DNA of 23,800 bases from a virus (taxonomy: Duplodnaviria; Heunggongvirae; Uroviricota; Caudoviricetes), in the IMG/VR virus record IMGVR_UViG_2663763471_000001; one strand, 5' to 3'. The notes beneath the pieces are model-generated. The model was not told the origin of the DNA, searched no databases, and saw only the letters and a program-made list of their open reading frames with translations. This document shows, piece by piece, positions 8,575 to 10,920 of this stretch. Position 1 is the stretch's first letter, and each line of letters starts with the position of its first letter. The position numbers and the translations under genes were made by a program.

Positions 8575-10920
8575 ATGTGGAACCTTTTACGGCGAACCCG
8601 AAAAAACCAGAAATCAGGACGTGACGTAAGAGAGGCGGGCTGGACCAGCCTGTTTCAGGCGGTGGCTGAGCCCTTTTCCGGCGCCTGGCAGCAGGGCGTG
8701 AAAGCCGATCCTGAAGCCGTCCTCTCCTTTCATGCGGTGTTTGCATGTATTTCGCTGATATCCCAGGATATCGCCAAAATGCGGCTGCGTCTTATGCAGA
8801 CGGATGCGCATGGGATACGCAGGGAAACGCGCCGGGGGGATATTGCCCGCCTCTGTCGTCGTCCCAACGCCCAGCAGAACCGCATCCAGTTTTTTGAACT
8901 GTGGCTGAACGCCAAACTGCGTCATGGCAATACGGTGGTGCTGAAAATCCGTAATGCCCGGGGGCAGATCAAAGAACTGCGTATTCTGGACTGGAGCCGG
9001 GTTGAACCTCTGGTGGCGGATGACGGCGAGGTGTTCTACCGCATCACGCCGGACCGGAACTGCGGGATCACGGAGGCGGTGACGGTGCCTGCCCGGGAAG
9101 TGATCCACGACCGGTTTAACTGTTTTTTTCATCCGCTTATAGGATTGCCGCCGGTGTATGCCGCCGGGCTGGCGGCCACGCAGGGGCATCATATTCAGGA
9201 AAATTCGACGTCTTTTTTCAGAAATGGCGGCAGGCCGTCCGGGGTGATTGAGATCCCCGGCAGTATTACGGAAGAAAATGCGAAAAAACTGAAGAGCAAC
9301 TGGGACAGCGGGTATACAGGCGAAAATGCGGGGAAAACGGCCATTCTGAGCAACGGGGCAAAATACAACCCCACGACGTTTTCACCTGTGGATGCGCAGA
9401 CGGTGGAACAACTGAAGATGACCGCTGAAATTGTCTGTTCGGTGTTCCGTGTCCCGGCCTACAAGATTGGCGTGGGACAACCGCCTTCCAGTGACAACGT
9501 GGAGGCGCTGGAGCAGCAGTATTATTCCCAGTGCCTGCAGACGCTGATTGAGTCCATTGAACTGTTACTGGATGAGGCGCTGGAAACGGGGGAAAACGAG
9601 AGTACAGAATTTGATGTCACCACGCTGCTGAGAATGGACAGTGAGCGGCGCATGAAAACGCTGGGGGATGCGGTGAAAAATACGCTTCTCACGCCCAATG
9701 AGGCCCGTAAACGGGAGAACCTGCCGCCCCTGGCCGGCGGTGATGCACTGTATCTTCAGCAGCAGAACTACAGTCTGGAGGCGCTGTCCCGTCGTGATGC
9801 CCGTGAGGATCCGTTCGCGTCTGCCGGGAAAACAGTTTCATCACAGCTGCCTGACGGCGCATCTGACGGTAATAAGGCAATCAGTGAAACAGAGCATGAT
9901 GCGGTGAAAGCGATGTTCAGGGGGGATACTGAGAAAATGACGGAACGGGAACTGTCCATTATTCGTGCACTGGGAGAAGAATTCTCCACAGTGCTGGCGG
10001 ATTTACAGCGCACATTTGAGGGGAAGATGGCCTCGCAGGCACAAGCGTTTGAAGAGAAACTGACTTCCCTGTCGGCGGTATTACAGAAGCATGTGACGGT
10101 GGATGAGGTGCGTCCGGTTCTGCAGGCGATGGTGGATGACGCTGTGGGGGCCATTCCGGTACCGCGTGATGGTCGTGATTATGATCCGGATGTACTGCAG
10201 CAGGCGGTGAATGATGCGGTNNNNNNNNNNNGCCATATCCCTGTTCCGCGTGATGGTCGTGACTATGATCCGGATGTACTGCAGAAGGCGGTGAATGATG
10301 CGGTCGCAAATATTCCGCAGCCGGCGGACGGTAAAAGTCTCACCCCGGATGATGTGCGTCCGATGCTTGAACAGATGGTGAAGGAGGCTGTAAGCCATAT
10401 TCCTGTTCCGCGTGATGGTCGTGACTACGATCCGGATGTTCTGCAGAAGGCGGTTCTGGATGCGGTGAGTGCCCTGCCGGCTCCGCAGGACGGGCGTGAT
10501 GCCACGGCTCTGGAAATACTCCCCGCCATTGACGATCAAAAATCCTTTCCCCGGGGCACGTATGCCACACACCAGGGCGGACTCTGGCGGGCGTATGAAA
10601 AAACGCACGGGATGCGGGGATGGGAATGCCTGGTTGACGGGGTGGCGGATATTGACGTCAGCATGACGGGTGAGCGGTTGTTCTCTGTGGTGGTCCGGCA
10701 GAGCAGTGGCCAGCGTACGGAAAAAACATTTTCCCTGCCGGTGATGCTCTACCGCGGTGTGTTCAGAGCCGGTGAAACCTACCACCCCGGCGATACGGTG
10801 ACGTGGGGGGGCTCGCTGTGGCACTGCAACAGTATGACCGAAGATAAACCCGGAGAAGCTCATTCATCAGCCTGGACCCTGGCTGCAAAACGTGGGCGGG
10901 ATGCAGGAGGCGGAAAATGA
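8575..10920 (+). CDS. Portal protein (HK97-family core) with a ~370-aa C-terminal extension
   Basis: Portal signatures: AVFACISLISQDIAKMRL, FRNGGRPSGVIEIPG, ENAGKTAILSNGAKY, TPNEARKRENLPPLAGGDALYLQQQNYSLEAL. The core ends near 9800. The remainder holds tandem repeats and a distinct terminal domain. Start uncertain. Contains an 11-N gap at 10221-10231. Confidence 0.8.
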   Translation: MWNLLRRTRKNQKSGRDVREAGWTSLFQAVAEPFSGAWQQGVKADPEAVLSFHAVFACISLISQDIAKMRLRLMQTDAHGIRRETRRGDIARLCRRPNAQQNRIQFFELWLNAKLRHGNTVVLKIRNARGQIKELRILDWSRVEPLVADDGEVFYRITPDRNCGITEAVTVPAREVIHDRFNCFFHPLIGLPPVYAAGLAATQGHHIQENSTSFFRNGGRPSGVIEIPGSITEENAKKLKSNWDSGYTGENAGKTAILSNGAKYNPTTFSPVDAQTVEQLKMTAEIVCSVFRVPAYKIGVGQPPSSDNVEALEQQYYSQCLQTLIESIELLLDEALETGENESTEFDVTTLLRMDSERRMKTLGDAVKNTLLTPNEARKRENLPPLAGGDALYLQQQNYSLEALSRRDAREDPFASAGKTVSSQLPDGASDGNKAISETEHDAVKAMFRGDTEKMTERELSIIRALGEEFSTVLADLQRTFEGKMASQAQAFEEKLTSLSAVLQKHVTVDEVRPVLQAMVDDAVGAIPVPRDGRDYDPDVLQQAVNDAXXXXXHIPVPRDGRDYDPDVLQKAVNDAVANIPQPADGKSLTPDDVRPMLEQMVKEAVSHIPVPRDGRDYDPDVLQKAVLDAVSALPAPQDGRDATALEILPAIDDQKSFPRGTYATHQGGLWRAYEKTHGMRGWECLVDGVADIDVSMTGERLFSVVVRQSSGQRTEKTFSLPVMLYRGVFRAGETYHPGDTVTWGGSLWHCNSMTEDKPGEAHSSAWTLAAKRGRDAGGGK
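10105..10470 (+). repeat. In-frame tandem repeats inside the portal C-terminal extension
   Basis: Three copies of a ~60-bp core ccgcgtgatggtcgtgac(t/c)atgatccggatgt(a/t)ctgcag(c/a)aggcggt… encoding IPVPRDGRDYDPDVLQ(Q/K)AV, nested in two copies of a longer ~40-aa unit (DxVRP(V/M)L(Q/E)(A/Q)MV…). An N run interrupts the array. Confidence 0.75.

Follow-up and report, generated by a model that had tools for sequence, protein, structure and literature searches.

A G-tract variant probably joins an HK97-family portal gene to its neighbour in Escherichia coli prophages

The window analysed here is a 23,800-nt stretch of an Escherichia coli prophage (IMG/VR record IMGVR_UViG_2663763471_000001) with a whole morphogenesis module, comprising terminase, a protease-capsid fusion, a connector, and tail and tape-measure ORFs. 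Within the module lies a single ORF of 781 aa, made up of a portal part and a second coding region (hereafter X). The features discussed are as follows.

4141-4704, TerS
4701-6362, TerL
6426-8363, S78 protease-capsid fusion
8575-10920, plus strand, fused ORF of 781 aa
8575-9936, plus strand, HK97-family portal part, aa 1-454 (PF04860, TIGR01537, PDB portals)
9920-9925, plus strand, homopolymer tract of six G (G6), five in split alleles (G5), from DNA alignments against WGPS2, FRIK2455 and BP-4795
9937-9940, plus strand, vestigial ATGA junction, its ATG (9937-9939) being the ancestral X start, now Met455
9937-10086, plus strand, N-terminal segment of X, aa 455-504, an amphipathic helix of ~50 residues starting MTERELSIIRALGEEF (AlphaFold model of P0033)
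10087-10512, plus strand, strongly acidic repeat region of half-units, each a PxPxDG loop and a helix of 13-17 aa
10221-10231, run of 11 N, an assembly gap in the repeat array and the sole N run in the window
10513-10917, plus strand, C-terminal beta-rich domain of X, aa ~647-781, the conserved core of the X family
about 10561-10761, first beta module of this end domain
about 10780-10887, CBM5/12-like module (YHPGDTVTWGGSLWHC...W.L)
10917-11243, plus strand, gp6-like head-tail connector (PF05135), its start overlapping the stop of the fused ORF (ATGA)

The first part of the ORF is a conventional portal. PF04860 matches the window protein over aa 54-382 (5e-81; 272.7 bits against a cutoff of 39.1; model positions 2-321 of 321) and TIGR01537 over aa 45-388 (349.5 bits against a cutoff of 112; model positions 2-343 of 343), and it matches the solved portals 9lbn (1e-28) and that of HK97 (8cez, 4e-20). 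The one paper reached through 9lbn, the closest solved portal, deals with a tail tube. Both the full-model profile match and the setting in a head-morphogenesis module place the protein in the HK97 family: from aa 1 to ~400 it is a full-length, high-scoring member (compare HK97 8cez/8fql and 9lbn), and its gene shares the head module with terminase, the S78 protease-capsid fusion and the gp6-like connector, which follows the portal/X region in an order common to all related loci. The portal core occupies aa ~45-400 and is followed, at aa ~400-454, by a low-complexity linker and a short conserved C-terminal segment (SETEHDAVKAMFRG...). Solved HK97-type portals align only as far as residues ~400-420, just past YLQQQNYSLEAL, and about 330-370 further residues of the ORF lie beyond the core. 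Solved relatives are 424-431 aa long and portals of other genera 449-470 aa, whereas the window ORF is longer by ~330 residues, which come from another gene. The observation made in a sequence-only reading of this DNA, that the ORF runs past the portal core, is thus borne out by the Pfam and TIGR01537 limits and by the point at which the PDB alignments stop.

The join between the two parts can be traced to a short homopolymer. The G6 tract stands 11 nt before the X start codon, encodes the Arg-Gly pair conserved in the portal tail, and probably doubles as a Shine-Dalgarno-like element for X; a purine-rich element (AGAGGA, CGGGGG or GAGAAGGAG) stands at the equivalent place in 22 other species. 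Relative to G5, the one extra G of G6 puts the portal frame into the X frame, so that the ancestral portal stop, TGA at 9938-9940, is out of frame in the window and is skipped. Read in the G5 frame, the portal tail KAMFRGILRK resembles the Klebsiella tail KAMLRGLLAK, whereas the G6 frame reads RGDTEK at this place. The 781-aa ORF is therefore very probably an ordinary HK97-family portal (aa 1-454) joined to the neighbouring gene X (aa 455-781). The extension is not a domain that the portal evolved at its C-terminus but an adjacent, conserved and normally separate gene that is read through by way of a single extra G.

Both states of the junction are found among close relatives. G6 is carried by the window, ST131, phage 2851, YYZ-2008 and the phage record vB_EcoS-705R7. 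G5 is carried by Sakai Sp10, BP-4795, Stx2a_WGPS2 and one FRIK2455 copy, in which the portal (454 aa) and X form two ORFs with an ATGA overlap. The pairs ECs_1974/ECs_1975 of Sp10, ORF58/ORF59 of BP-4795 and gp57/gp56 of Stx2a_WGPS2 correspond to the two coding regions of the window in the same order and at 90-99% identity; they differ from it in having G5 rather than G6 and in encoding two proteins (454 aa and 407-461 aa) across the overlap. Both members of these split EHEC pairs have inherited the annotation 'portal protein' from the fused form. The frameshift and stop dividing the two parts are accordingly present in Sp10, BP-4795 and Stx2a_WGPS2 and absent in the lineage of the window, where hundreds of complete genomes carry the fused form.

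Outside E. coli, the portal and X are separate in Klebsiella, Pseudomonas phage PAJU2, a Rhizobium phage and a metagenome locus; in the relatives examined there, the portal has its own stop, across which X begins M(T/N)ERELS.... In each of the 24 species-representative loci whose sequence sufficed for the test, the two genes lie in different frames; their junction is retained in 22 of the 24, with an overlap of 4-17 nt in every one of the 22. Fifteen loci of Enterobacterales type, one of them bearing the label of a Chitinophaga MAG, overlap by ATGA and eight others by 14-17 nt, and X directly follows the portal with a stop/start overlap in all loci examined. From this arrangement, separate portal and X genes are very probably the ancestral state, with X putatively coupled to the portal in translation. 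The suggestion that the extension could be a separate product comes close to this ancestral state; the two products would, however, be made by separate translation and not by processing.

Among complete E. coli genomes the fused allele outnumbers the split one. Of 1063 complete-genome records, 747 have the exact G6 junction as their best match and 31 have one exact G5 junction sequence, the latter count covering that single sequence, with other G5 variants falling in a lower identity band that was left out. The exact 807-aa fused protein occurs on at least 1000 contigs, and the fused ORF stays open for >750 codons even in diverged copies. Clonal bias in the collections of E. coli genomes (ST131, O157) makes the prevalence of the fused allele weak evidence of fitness. 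Both G5 and G6 are found in phages reported active: Sp10 (G5) is packaged and transferred to K-12 (PMC2669165), and phage 2851 (G6) appears as the published Stx2c prototype phage in a reference in PMC8065619. Comparisons of dN/dS indicate purifying selection on both the portal and X, the value for the X end domain being below 1 (0.15-0.45) in most comparisons with only 4-10 substitutions of each kind; end-domain comparisons with 2851 and FRIK2455 were out of register and were left out. The G5 and G6 states are not told apart by this measure, because the alleles are mosaics. The tract length has changed more than once, since the G5 allele of FRIK2455 differs from G6 alleles by one synonymous change in 1320 nt, while Sp10 and WGPS2, also G5, stand at dS 0.24-0.27. 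A second fusion, P0192 (1237 aa), is found on four contigs, the two places shown being two different samples. Among its 120 best-scoring relatives listed there are no diverged fused forms; these are ordinary-length or partial portals, matching P0192 within its portal part only. Portal-X fusions thus look sporadic.

X itself is modular, with the ~50-aa amphipathic helix followed by a variable number of 54-aa repeats and a beta-rich end domain that is predicted to be monomeric. In the AlphaFold model of P0033, a stand-alone X, the helix spans residues 3-50 (pLDDT 90-96) and repeat helices lie at 55-71 and 84-96; the first ~15 residues of X are kept across Enterobacterales. The repeat unit comprises 54 aa (162 nt), IPVPRDGRDYDPDVLQKAVNDAVAN plus IPQPADGKSLTPDDVRPMLEQMVKEAVSH, as two half-units averaging 27 aa (alternately 25 and 29 aa), and the 60-residue repeat segment of P0033 has a charge of about -7. 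In the window, the IPVPRDGRDYDPDVLQ(Q/K)AV core occurs three times, from nt 10153, 10237 and 10399, with 85-92% DNA identity between copies over 66 nt, which is far above chance. Tandem Repeats Finder reported no repeats over 9500-11200, because the copies are interrupted and irregularly spaced, and the repeats were defined instead by repeat search and protein alignment. The 11-N run translates as XXXXX, at a place where the 807-aa allele has 89 nt between matching flanks. Near-identical complete genomes have an ORF of 753 or 807 aa, and lengths overall go in 54-aa steps, with fused forms of 753, 807 and 861 aa and stand-alone X of 245, 353, 407 and 461 aa. The 781 aa of the window fall on none of these steps, so the 84-nt spacing of cores and the copy number seen there are artefacts of the gap. 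Of the earlier description of the array, the repeats and their three cores are real, while the unit is 54 aa rather than ~40 aa and the copy number in the window is affected by the N run; the proposed comparison of portal lengths in related prophages yields the fused series above and a stand-alone portal of 454 aa.

The AlphaFold model of X has a pLDDT of 90.4 overall and 95-98 in the end domain, and the predicted fold of its last ~50 residues superposes on solved CBM5/12 domains at 1.1-2.9 Å with 23-28% identity. By profile, the Pfam CBM5/12 family (PF02839) matches the window protein at aa 731-753 with 19.4-21.3 bits, below the gathering cutoff of 26.2; among homologues the best score is 25.1 bits (Klebsiella P0059), with others at 10.7-21.4. 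Three aromatic residues (Y200, W213 and W231 in P0033 numbering) are nearly invariant in an 88-sequence family alignment, and a Y..GD.V...G..W signature is kept throughout the X family. The last ~50 residues of X are predicted, on the model, to adopt the CBM5/12 chitin-binding fold, and the sequence-only reading's recognition of a CBM5/12-like terminal domain is upheld by a sub-threshold Pfam match together with a high-confidence predicted fold. Both the fold and the signature are shared with the CBM5/12 modules of Serratia ChiB, Streptomyces ChiC and a Vibrio chitin oligosaccharide deacetylase. Unlike in the chitinases, the second aromatic of the 'WW' pair is missing from X and the Pfam score lies under the gathering cutoff; unlike in the enzymes generally, the module sits on a phage structural protein and is of carbohydrate-binding type by predicted fold. 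In phages, CBM5/12-type modules cap fibres and spikes at their distal ends, and the nearest viral folds to X are those of collagen-like fibre, ChiC_BD and CBM5/12 phage proteins. The end-domain fold is the one thing shared with collagen-like phage fibre proteins: a collagen-like G-X-Y tail occurs only at the extreme C-terminus of some X homologues (P0156, P0133 and P0145), and the window protein contains no runs of G-X-Y triplets. Classical fibres are trimeric, whereas X is modelled as an acidic monomer.

X constitutes a large family that is poorly served by annotation. The family numbers 5633 clusters at 50% identity (E <= 1e-3), nearly all of them stand-alone; a genome scan for it was seeded with a 9-sequence end-domain alignment. 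The gene is a fixed member of a head module consisting of the protease-capsid fusion, a small ORF, portal, X and connector, and the protease-capsid/portal/X module is found in Enterobacterales, Pseudomonas and other Proteobacteria. Searches of X against the PDB by sequence and against NCBIfam and PADLOC returned no family, and X and five homologues yielded no curated Pfam family at E <= 1, PF04233 included. Against PHROGs, X retrieved 'portal protein' or unknown families built from these Stx-phage proteins, plus weak tail-fibre matches. Labels transferred from the fused E. coli form, either "phage portal protein" or "gp6-like head-tail connector", stand on thousands of stand-alone X proteins, and PGAP (NCBI) flags the G5 state as a frameshifted pseudogene. 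No literature on X or the extension was found in searches covering BP-4795, Stx/D3/PAJU2 virion proteomics, vB_EcoS-705R7, 2851 and the Sakai prophages. Proteomics papers on YA3 and AH14a were also considered and set aside, the head modules of these phages differing from the portal-X module.

These features suggest a role for X at the portal vertex. The overlapping stop and start would lead to X being made in low, portal-like amounts, and X may dock at the portal vertex as a glycan-binding accessory, resembling a collar- or whisker-like adhesin. Possible parallels are T4 fibritin and the neck passage structure of TP901-1/Tuc2009, low-copy accessories of the head-tail junction encoded near head-completion genes. 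Neck and collar fibres are non-essential; they attach through a helix or coiled coil at the N-terminus and carry a binding domain at the distal end of a variable shaft, and the T4 fibritin gene wac adjoins the neck genes 13/14. Their shafts, however, have no sequence or fold kinship with X, which is predicted to be monomeric, and we know of no collars reported on these phages. The complete reading, in which the G tract fuses portal to X and X is a portal-vertex glycan-binding accessory, is given roughly even odds (a probability of about 0.5); an external adhesin function for X, considered separately, is put forward tentatively as a possibility.

The fused allele poses a difficulty of topology. 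The C-terminus of the portal forms the crown and faces the capsid lumen in established portal architecture, and the puzzle raised by the sequence-only reading, of a binding domain at an inward-facing end, is thus genuine for the fused allele. Tethered X would have to lie on the crown side, where the external site of neck and collar fibres is topologically incompatible, and free X would arise only through internal initiation at Met455. On these grounds we infer that the fused allele is a tolerated, possibly function-reducing variant and not a designed portal domain. The fused allele is the E. coli majority and is intact over ~330-400 codons, an observation that counts against loss of function and is a better fit to X working at the inner side of the portal.

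That X is by design an internal head protein on the portal crown, analogous to SPP1 gp7/Mu gpF or to a detachable P22 barrel, is accordingly the most substantial alternative, though a rather doubtful one. The fusion would then be fully functional and would hard-wire a 1:1 complex that is otherwise non-covalent in the procapsid. This agrees with the inward orientation of the portal C-terminus and the end of the solved-portal alignments at aa 400-420, with at least two origins of fusion at that end (E. coli G6 and P0192), and with the fused state being the majority in complete E. coli genomes and present in phage 2851. Conservation of the stop/start overlap at all 22 junctions is in keeping with a partner stoichiometric with the portal, and a position directly after the portal is typical of portal-bound minor head proteins, as in SPP1 and Mu, where they are usually encoded there. 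The likeness to SPP1 gp7/Mu gpF (PF04233) is nevertheless one of position only, X following the portal, being probably low-copy and plausibly portal-bound, along with an occasional fusion to neighbouring domains. There is no sequence similarity and no match to PF04233 (Mu F) or other head-protein families, and gp7 binds DNA, whereas X is strongly acidic, unfavourable beside packed DNA, and ends in a carbohydrate-binding-type domain known from distal fibre and spike ends and from chitinases; we know of no internal head protein with a CBM5/12-type module. The C-terminal barrel of the P22 portal, a long helical continuation into the capsid, is the nearest precedent for the fused allele on the crown. 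That barrel is integral to the portal, whereas here a low-complexity linker of ~50 aa leads into a helix whose gene stands apart from the portal in almost all relatives, including the 24 testable loci, PAJU2, Klebsiella and Sp10. Recurrence of fusion was considered as proof of an internal location, an argument weakened by the unfused relatives of P0192 and by an overlap that makes fusion a one-base accident. With P0192 lacking diverged fused relatives and portal and X in different frames in all 24 testable loci, the fusions look like short-lived accidents of an overlapping junction.

The remaining alternatives concern the junction itself. It is improbable that the G tract is a heritable on/off switch for a portal-vertex adhesin, possibly with ribosomal slippage at that site, whereby G5 would give free X in a 1:1 ratio with the portal and displayed, and G6 would lock X to the crown inside the head; in a variant of this, the number of repeats would set the length of X as a detachable P22-like barrel. 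Were it true, lambdoid and Stx phage populations would hold two interconvertible virion types that are unlike in adsorption to host or mucosal glycans. Scarcely probable is a recoding or contingency site, in which slippage on the G tract or on the A_AAA_UGA that precedes the X start, downstream of the G-rich Shine-Dalgarno-like element, plus heritable change between G5 and G6, would yield both plain portal and portal-X from one locus, in a ratio set by the allele. The repeated change in tract length is compatible with this; in G5, a -1 slip of tRNA-Gly (AGG_GGG_A) or tRNA-Lys (A_AAA_UGA) re-pairs perfectly and enters the X frame, the rare codons AGG, ATA and AGA cluster within the last eight codons of the ancestral portal frame, and a hairpin lies downstream at 9961-10002 (z = -2.5). 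However, the canonical X_XXY_YYZ heptamer is absent at the junction, the hairpin is ~24 nt past the putative slip site and too distant for a classical stimulator, and G5-G6 is short for high-frequency slippage. The Klebsiella X frame is closed by a stop codon directly upstream of the ATG, and the frame of X relative to the portal is -1 in Enterobacterales and +1 in Pseudomonas, Marinobacter and Haliea, so there is no conserved frameshift signal. A programmed -1 frameshift of the dnaX or lambda G-GT type is unlikely on the same four counts of heptamer, hairpin, Klebsiella stop and clade-dependent frame. The fused ORF is also most unlikely to be a homopolymer sequencing or assembly error, or a portal-inactivating mutation in a defective prophage. 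The window does come from a gapped assembly with an N run within the fused ORF; PGAP calls the G5 state a frameshifted pseudogene, showing that annotation easily follows the commoner allele; and many such O157 Sakai prophages are defective, with the portal scored 'D' in Sp6, Sp9 and Sp12 (PMC2669165). Against this, the 747 complete-genome records with the identical G6 junction were produced by many laboratories on many platforms, the junction recurs in phage records (2851, YYZ-2008 and vB_EcoS-705R7), the rest of the morphogenesis module is intact in the window, and diverged copies of the fused ORF remain open for >750 codons.

The portal of the window is thus an ordinary portal with a tolerated gene fusion, a common variant and not a new kind of portal, and knowledge of portals themselves is unchanged by it. 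X represents a very large family (>5,600 clusters at 50% identity) for which no assigned function, curated family or literature was found. The 'portal' and 'gp6-like' labels on X, together with the pseudogene flag on the two-gene state, mislead calls of prophage intactness, Stx phages included. The G5 and G6 alleles in near-identical phages constitute a natural experiment on the cargo tolerated by the portal C-terminus, and in long-tailed Stx1/Stx2c phages a carbohydrate-binding accessory at this vertex of the capsid could influence adsorption or gut persistence.

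The window ORF at 8575-10920 (+) encodes 781 aa, the N-terminal part of which is a complete HK97-family portal. Pfam profile PF04860 matches aa 54-382 (5e-81) and TIGR01537 matches aa 45-388 (349 bits; cutoff 112). Against solved portals (9lbn, 1e-28; HK97 8cez, 4e-20), the alignment stops at residues 400-420, directly past YLQQQNYSLEAL, bearing out the sequence-only reading that the ORF continues for several hundred residues beyond the portal core. As a member of its family the portal is ordinary, and it lies in a standard head module, with small and large terminase as neighbours and head closure, tail and tape measure genes elsewhere in the window:

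3485-3850 (+): HNH endonuclease gene, directly upstream of the small terminase
6426-8363 (+): S78 protease-capsid fusion, a single 645-aa gene with S78 prohead protease, coiled-coil (scaffold-like) segment and HK97-fold capsid
8408-8629 (+): small ORF, 73 aa, PHROG 829 (function not assigned), between capsid gene and portal
10917-11243: gp6-like connector
12454-13170 (+): major tail protein with a C-terminal Ig-like (Hoc-like) domain; PHROG 158 plus Hoc-like families

The gene order TerL, protease-capsid, portal is the reverse of the usual portal-protease-capsid order, and a protease-capsid gene upstream of the portal is common to all X-containing loci (X being the gene that follows the portal). 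The 73-aa ORF runs 55 nt into the portal start; an ORF of 53-72 aa occupies the matching position in Klebsiella, Sakai Sp10 and the contigs of P0192 (a second portal-X fusion protein), and it appears to be a fixed part of the head module. An HNH gene directly before the small terminase is a known arrangement for HK97-like cos packaging. With the Ig-like domain of its major tail protein, the virion probably has a second module for adhesion to carbohydrates or surfaces.

The extension corresponds to the neighbouring gene, X (aa 455-781 of the window protein), and is not a C-terminal domain of the portal itself: in Stx2a_WGPS2, BP-4795 (ORF58/ORF59) and Sakai Sp10 (ECs_1974/ECs_1975), the same DNA gives two proteins. 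The first is a 454-aa portal; the second, of 407-461 aa, begins M(T/N)ERELSIIRALGEEF, and its ATG overlaps the portal stop as ATGA. The sole junction difference is the G tract at 9920-9925, which has six residues in the window (TTCAGGGGGGATACTGAGAAAATGACG; G6) versus five in the split alleles (G5). With G6, the portal frame joins the X frame 11 nt ahead of the X start codon (9937), and the former portal stop (9938-9940) falls out of frame. The earlier suggestion of a separately processed product comes close to the G5 state, in which X is translated on its own rather than processed; in the window both proteins are fused. Tract length has changed more than once: between one O157 G5 allele and G6 alleles there is one synonymous change in 1320 nt of portal, and Sp10 and WGPS2, both G5, lie at dS 0.24-0.27 from G6 alleles.

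Two copies carry further peculiarities. The X ORF of O157:H7 FRIK2455 (L009 2541-3680) is cut to 379 codons, versus 407 in Sp10, so that copy has a second lesion besides G5. The fused ORF of phage 2851 (L012 539-3118) stops two codons before that of YYZ-2008, with loss of the overlap with the connector start. Three rare codons (AGG, ATA, AGA) fall within the last eight codons of the ancestral portal frame (window 9916-9940), and Sakai Sp10 (L011 20706-20958) encodes a tRNA-Ile(CAU) and a tRNA-Arg(UCU) of its own ahead of the late genes.

Outside E. coli, portal and X are separate genes at every locus looked at, including Klebsiella (portal 452 aa, X 402 aa), Pseudomonas phage PAJU2 (ORF006 and ORF007), a Rhizobium phage, EBPR siphovirus 3 and one metagenomic contig. 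A scan of one genome per species yielded 26 loci, from Enterobacterales, Pseudomonas, Marinobacter, Haliea, Variovorax, Acidovorax and Morganella. The two frames differ in all 24 loci with enough sequence; portal stop and X start share 4 nt or 14-17 nt at 22 of 22 junctions, and a purine-rich Shine-Dalgarno-like element precedes the X start. Read in the G5 frame, the portal tail is KAMFRGILRK, matching Klebsiella KAMLRGLLAK; the G6 frame gives RGDTEK. Given the separate frames, the overlaps and this tail match, the ancestral state is therefore two translationally coupled genes, and G6 is derived. A 3-kb contig binned as Chitinophaga (NZ_DATCVJ010000643.1) has an Enterobacterales-type portal/X junction (ATGA, MNERELAML...) and is probably a binning contaminant.

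The fusion is no sequencing error. The portal-X region was matched in 1246 of 5426 complete E. coli genomes, and of 1063 records, 747 had the exact G6 junction as their best match and 31 had one exact G5 junction sequence, a count that leaves out further G5 variants with substitutions in the 95-99% band. A 15-billion-protein collection contains 6387 sequences of the fused cluster and 2367 of the 454-aa portal cluster, and at least 1000 contigs carry the exact 807-aa protein. The idea that the fused ORF is an artefact or a dead gene is contradicted by the hundreds of independent complete genomes that carry it and by the intact remainder of the window's head module. G6 is also found in phage records 2851, YYZ-2008 and vB_EcoS-705R7, and phage 2851 is reportedly infectious. 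Sp10 (G5), with its full set of morphogenesis genes, undergoes spontaneous induction and packaging and passes to K-12, where it establishes lysogeny (PMC2669165), and phage 2851 was published as the prototype of Stx2c phages (Strauch et al. 2008, as cited in PMC8065619); both states occur in phages reported as active. NCBI PGAP labels the fused form 'phage portal protein' and the G5 form a frameshifted pseudogene. One 626-aa partial member of the fused cluster (WP_087673277.1) is named 'plasmid partitioning protein ParA, partial', which appears to be a mis-annotation. A programmed frameshift at the junction is unlikely: a slippery heptamer is absent there, in Klebsiella a stop codon sits immediately before the X start, X is not in the same relative frame in all clades, and the sole nearby hairpin begins too far downstream:

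9961-10002 (+): predicted RNA hairpin with a stem of ~18 bp, just inside the X coding region, beginning ~24 nt past the ATGA junction

The 90-nt stretch with this hairpin has a minimum free energy of -28 kcal/mol (z = -2.5; 4 of 200 shuffles fold as well).

Tandem repeats had been noted in the extension, and the three IPVPRDGRDYDPDVLQ(Q/K)AV cores, starting at 10153, 10237 and 10399 (85-92% DNA identity), are real; the proposed unit of ~40 aa is not. The true unit is 54 aa (162 nt), composed of two related half-units, IPVPRDGRDYDPDVLQKAVNDAVAN and IPQPADGKSLTPDDVRPMLEQMVKEAVSH, and the array contains the sole N run in the window (11 N, 10221-10231), between cores 1 and 2. On the proposed comparison with related prophages: in 99.3-99.7% near-identical copies from complete E. 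coli genomes, the ORF is 753 aa (NZ_CP124400) or 807 aa (ST131, WP_001513216.1), and aligned to these the window is short by 26 residues, precisely at the N run. Natural alleles step by whole units (fused, 753/807/861 aa; stand-alone X, 245/353/407/461 aa). The window's 781 aa falls off the fused series, so that its apparent repeat copy number, like the 84-nt core spacing, is an artefact of the gap. In the window-protein cluster, many database entries bear the label 'partial'.

In a full HMMER scan, a 245-aa stand-alone X from E. coli matched 5633 cluster representatives at E <= 1e-3, of which 2444 also at E <= 1e-10; almost all are stand-alone proteins of 214-690 aa, with conservation in the last ~140 residues. 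X had no family match in Pfam, NCBIfam or PADLOC and no sequence match to any solved structure, and a literature search found no paper on it. The AlphaFold modelling earlier advised for the extension, run on stand-alone X with 88 homologues, gave a confident model (pLDDT 90.4 overall, 95-98 in the end domain). In it X is modular: a single amphipathic helix of ~50 residues is followed by helix-loop half-units, in which a PxPxDG loop goes with a helix of 13-17 residues, then by an all-beta domain and a final ~50 residues that match CBM5/12 chitin-binding modules. In the PDB, Foldseek matched the model best to a tail fibre from Agrobacterium phage 7-7-1. The predicted viral structures nearest to it, after an EBPR homologue, are fibre- and spike-like phage proteins of collagen-repeat, ChiC_BD, CBM5/12, pectinesterase and lectin type. 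Short collagen-like G-X-Y runs end some homologues. The CBM5/12 resemblance first noted from the sequence is upheld by the predicted fold, but the Pfam CBM_5_12 score (19-25 bits) lies just below the 26.2 cutoff, so the end domain is named CBM5/12-like only and not counted a family member. The pI of X is acidic, at 4.6-5.6; in the modelled protein (P0033), a repeat segment of 60 residues has a charge of about -7, and the end domain is mildly basic.

X may be a low-copy glycan-binding accessory on the outside of the head-tail junction, a tentative reading given a probability of about 0.35 and favoured on account of the portal coupling together with the type of end domain. Being coupled to the portal, X would be expressed at low, portal-like levels and have its partner at the portal vertex rather than decorate the whole capsid, and the end domain would bind polysaccharide, as at phage fibre tips. 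Its role would be comparable to that of T4 whiskers, whose gene likewise adjoins neck genes, and of lactococcal neck-passage structures. The portal C-terminus forms the crown, inside the capsid, so X tethered in the G6 allele must be internal, and the topological difficulty raised by the sequence-only reading stands for this allele. If X acts externally, G6 would be a tolerated variant in which free X could arise only through internal initiation at Met455, without termination-reinitiation coupling. T4 portals reportedly tolerate C-terminal GFP fusions, which end inside the head, so an internal passenger is physically plausible.

X might instead belong on the crown by design, whether as an SPP1 gp7 or Mu gpF analogue or as a P22-like barrel that can detach, and fusion would then leave its function unimpaired. 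In E. coli the fused allele predominates and is intact, and P0192 (1237 aa, four contigs, the two places shown being from different samples) represents a second fusion of independent origin. However, the best-scoring 120 P0192 relatives listed are ordinary-length or partial portals that match its portal part only, none of the species-representative loci is fused, and the overlapping junction makes fusion a one-base accident. To our knowledge, no internal head protein has a module of the CBM5/12 kind. A crown function is ranked only slightly behind the external glycan-binding accessory; the remainder falls to an assembly-only role or something else.

Among the particles that O157 Sakai releases are long-tailed ones whose head is elongated (44 x 95 nm), ascribed by the authors to lambdoid prophages such as Sp10 or Sp6 (PMC2669165). 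Both prophages carry a head module of the window's type. D3/PAJU2-type phages, whose heads are isometric, also carry X.

RefSeq already holds the fused ORF as 'phage portal protein', and the Sakai split pair has been annotated since 2001. No description was found of the extension as a distinct, very large, uncharacterised protein family with a CBM5/12-like end domain, of a fusion toggled by the G5/G6 tract, or of the spread of the fused-form name to stand-alone X proteins in other genera. The fusion holds no surprise about portals; it is useful for annotation and provides a tractable question about the portal vertex.
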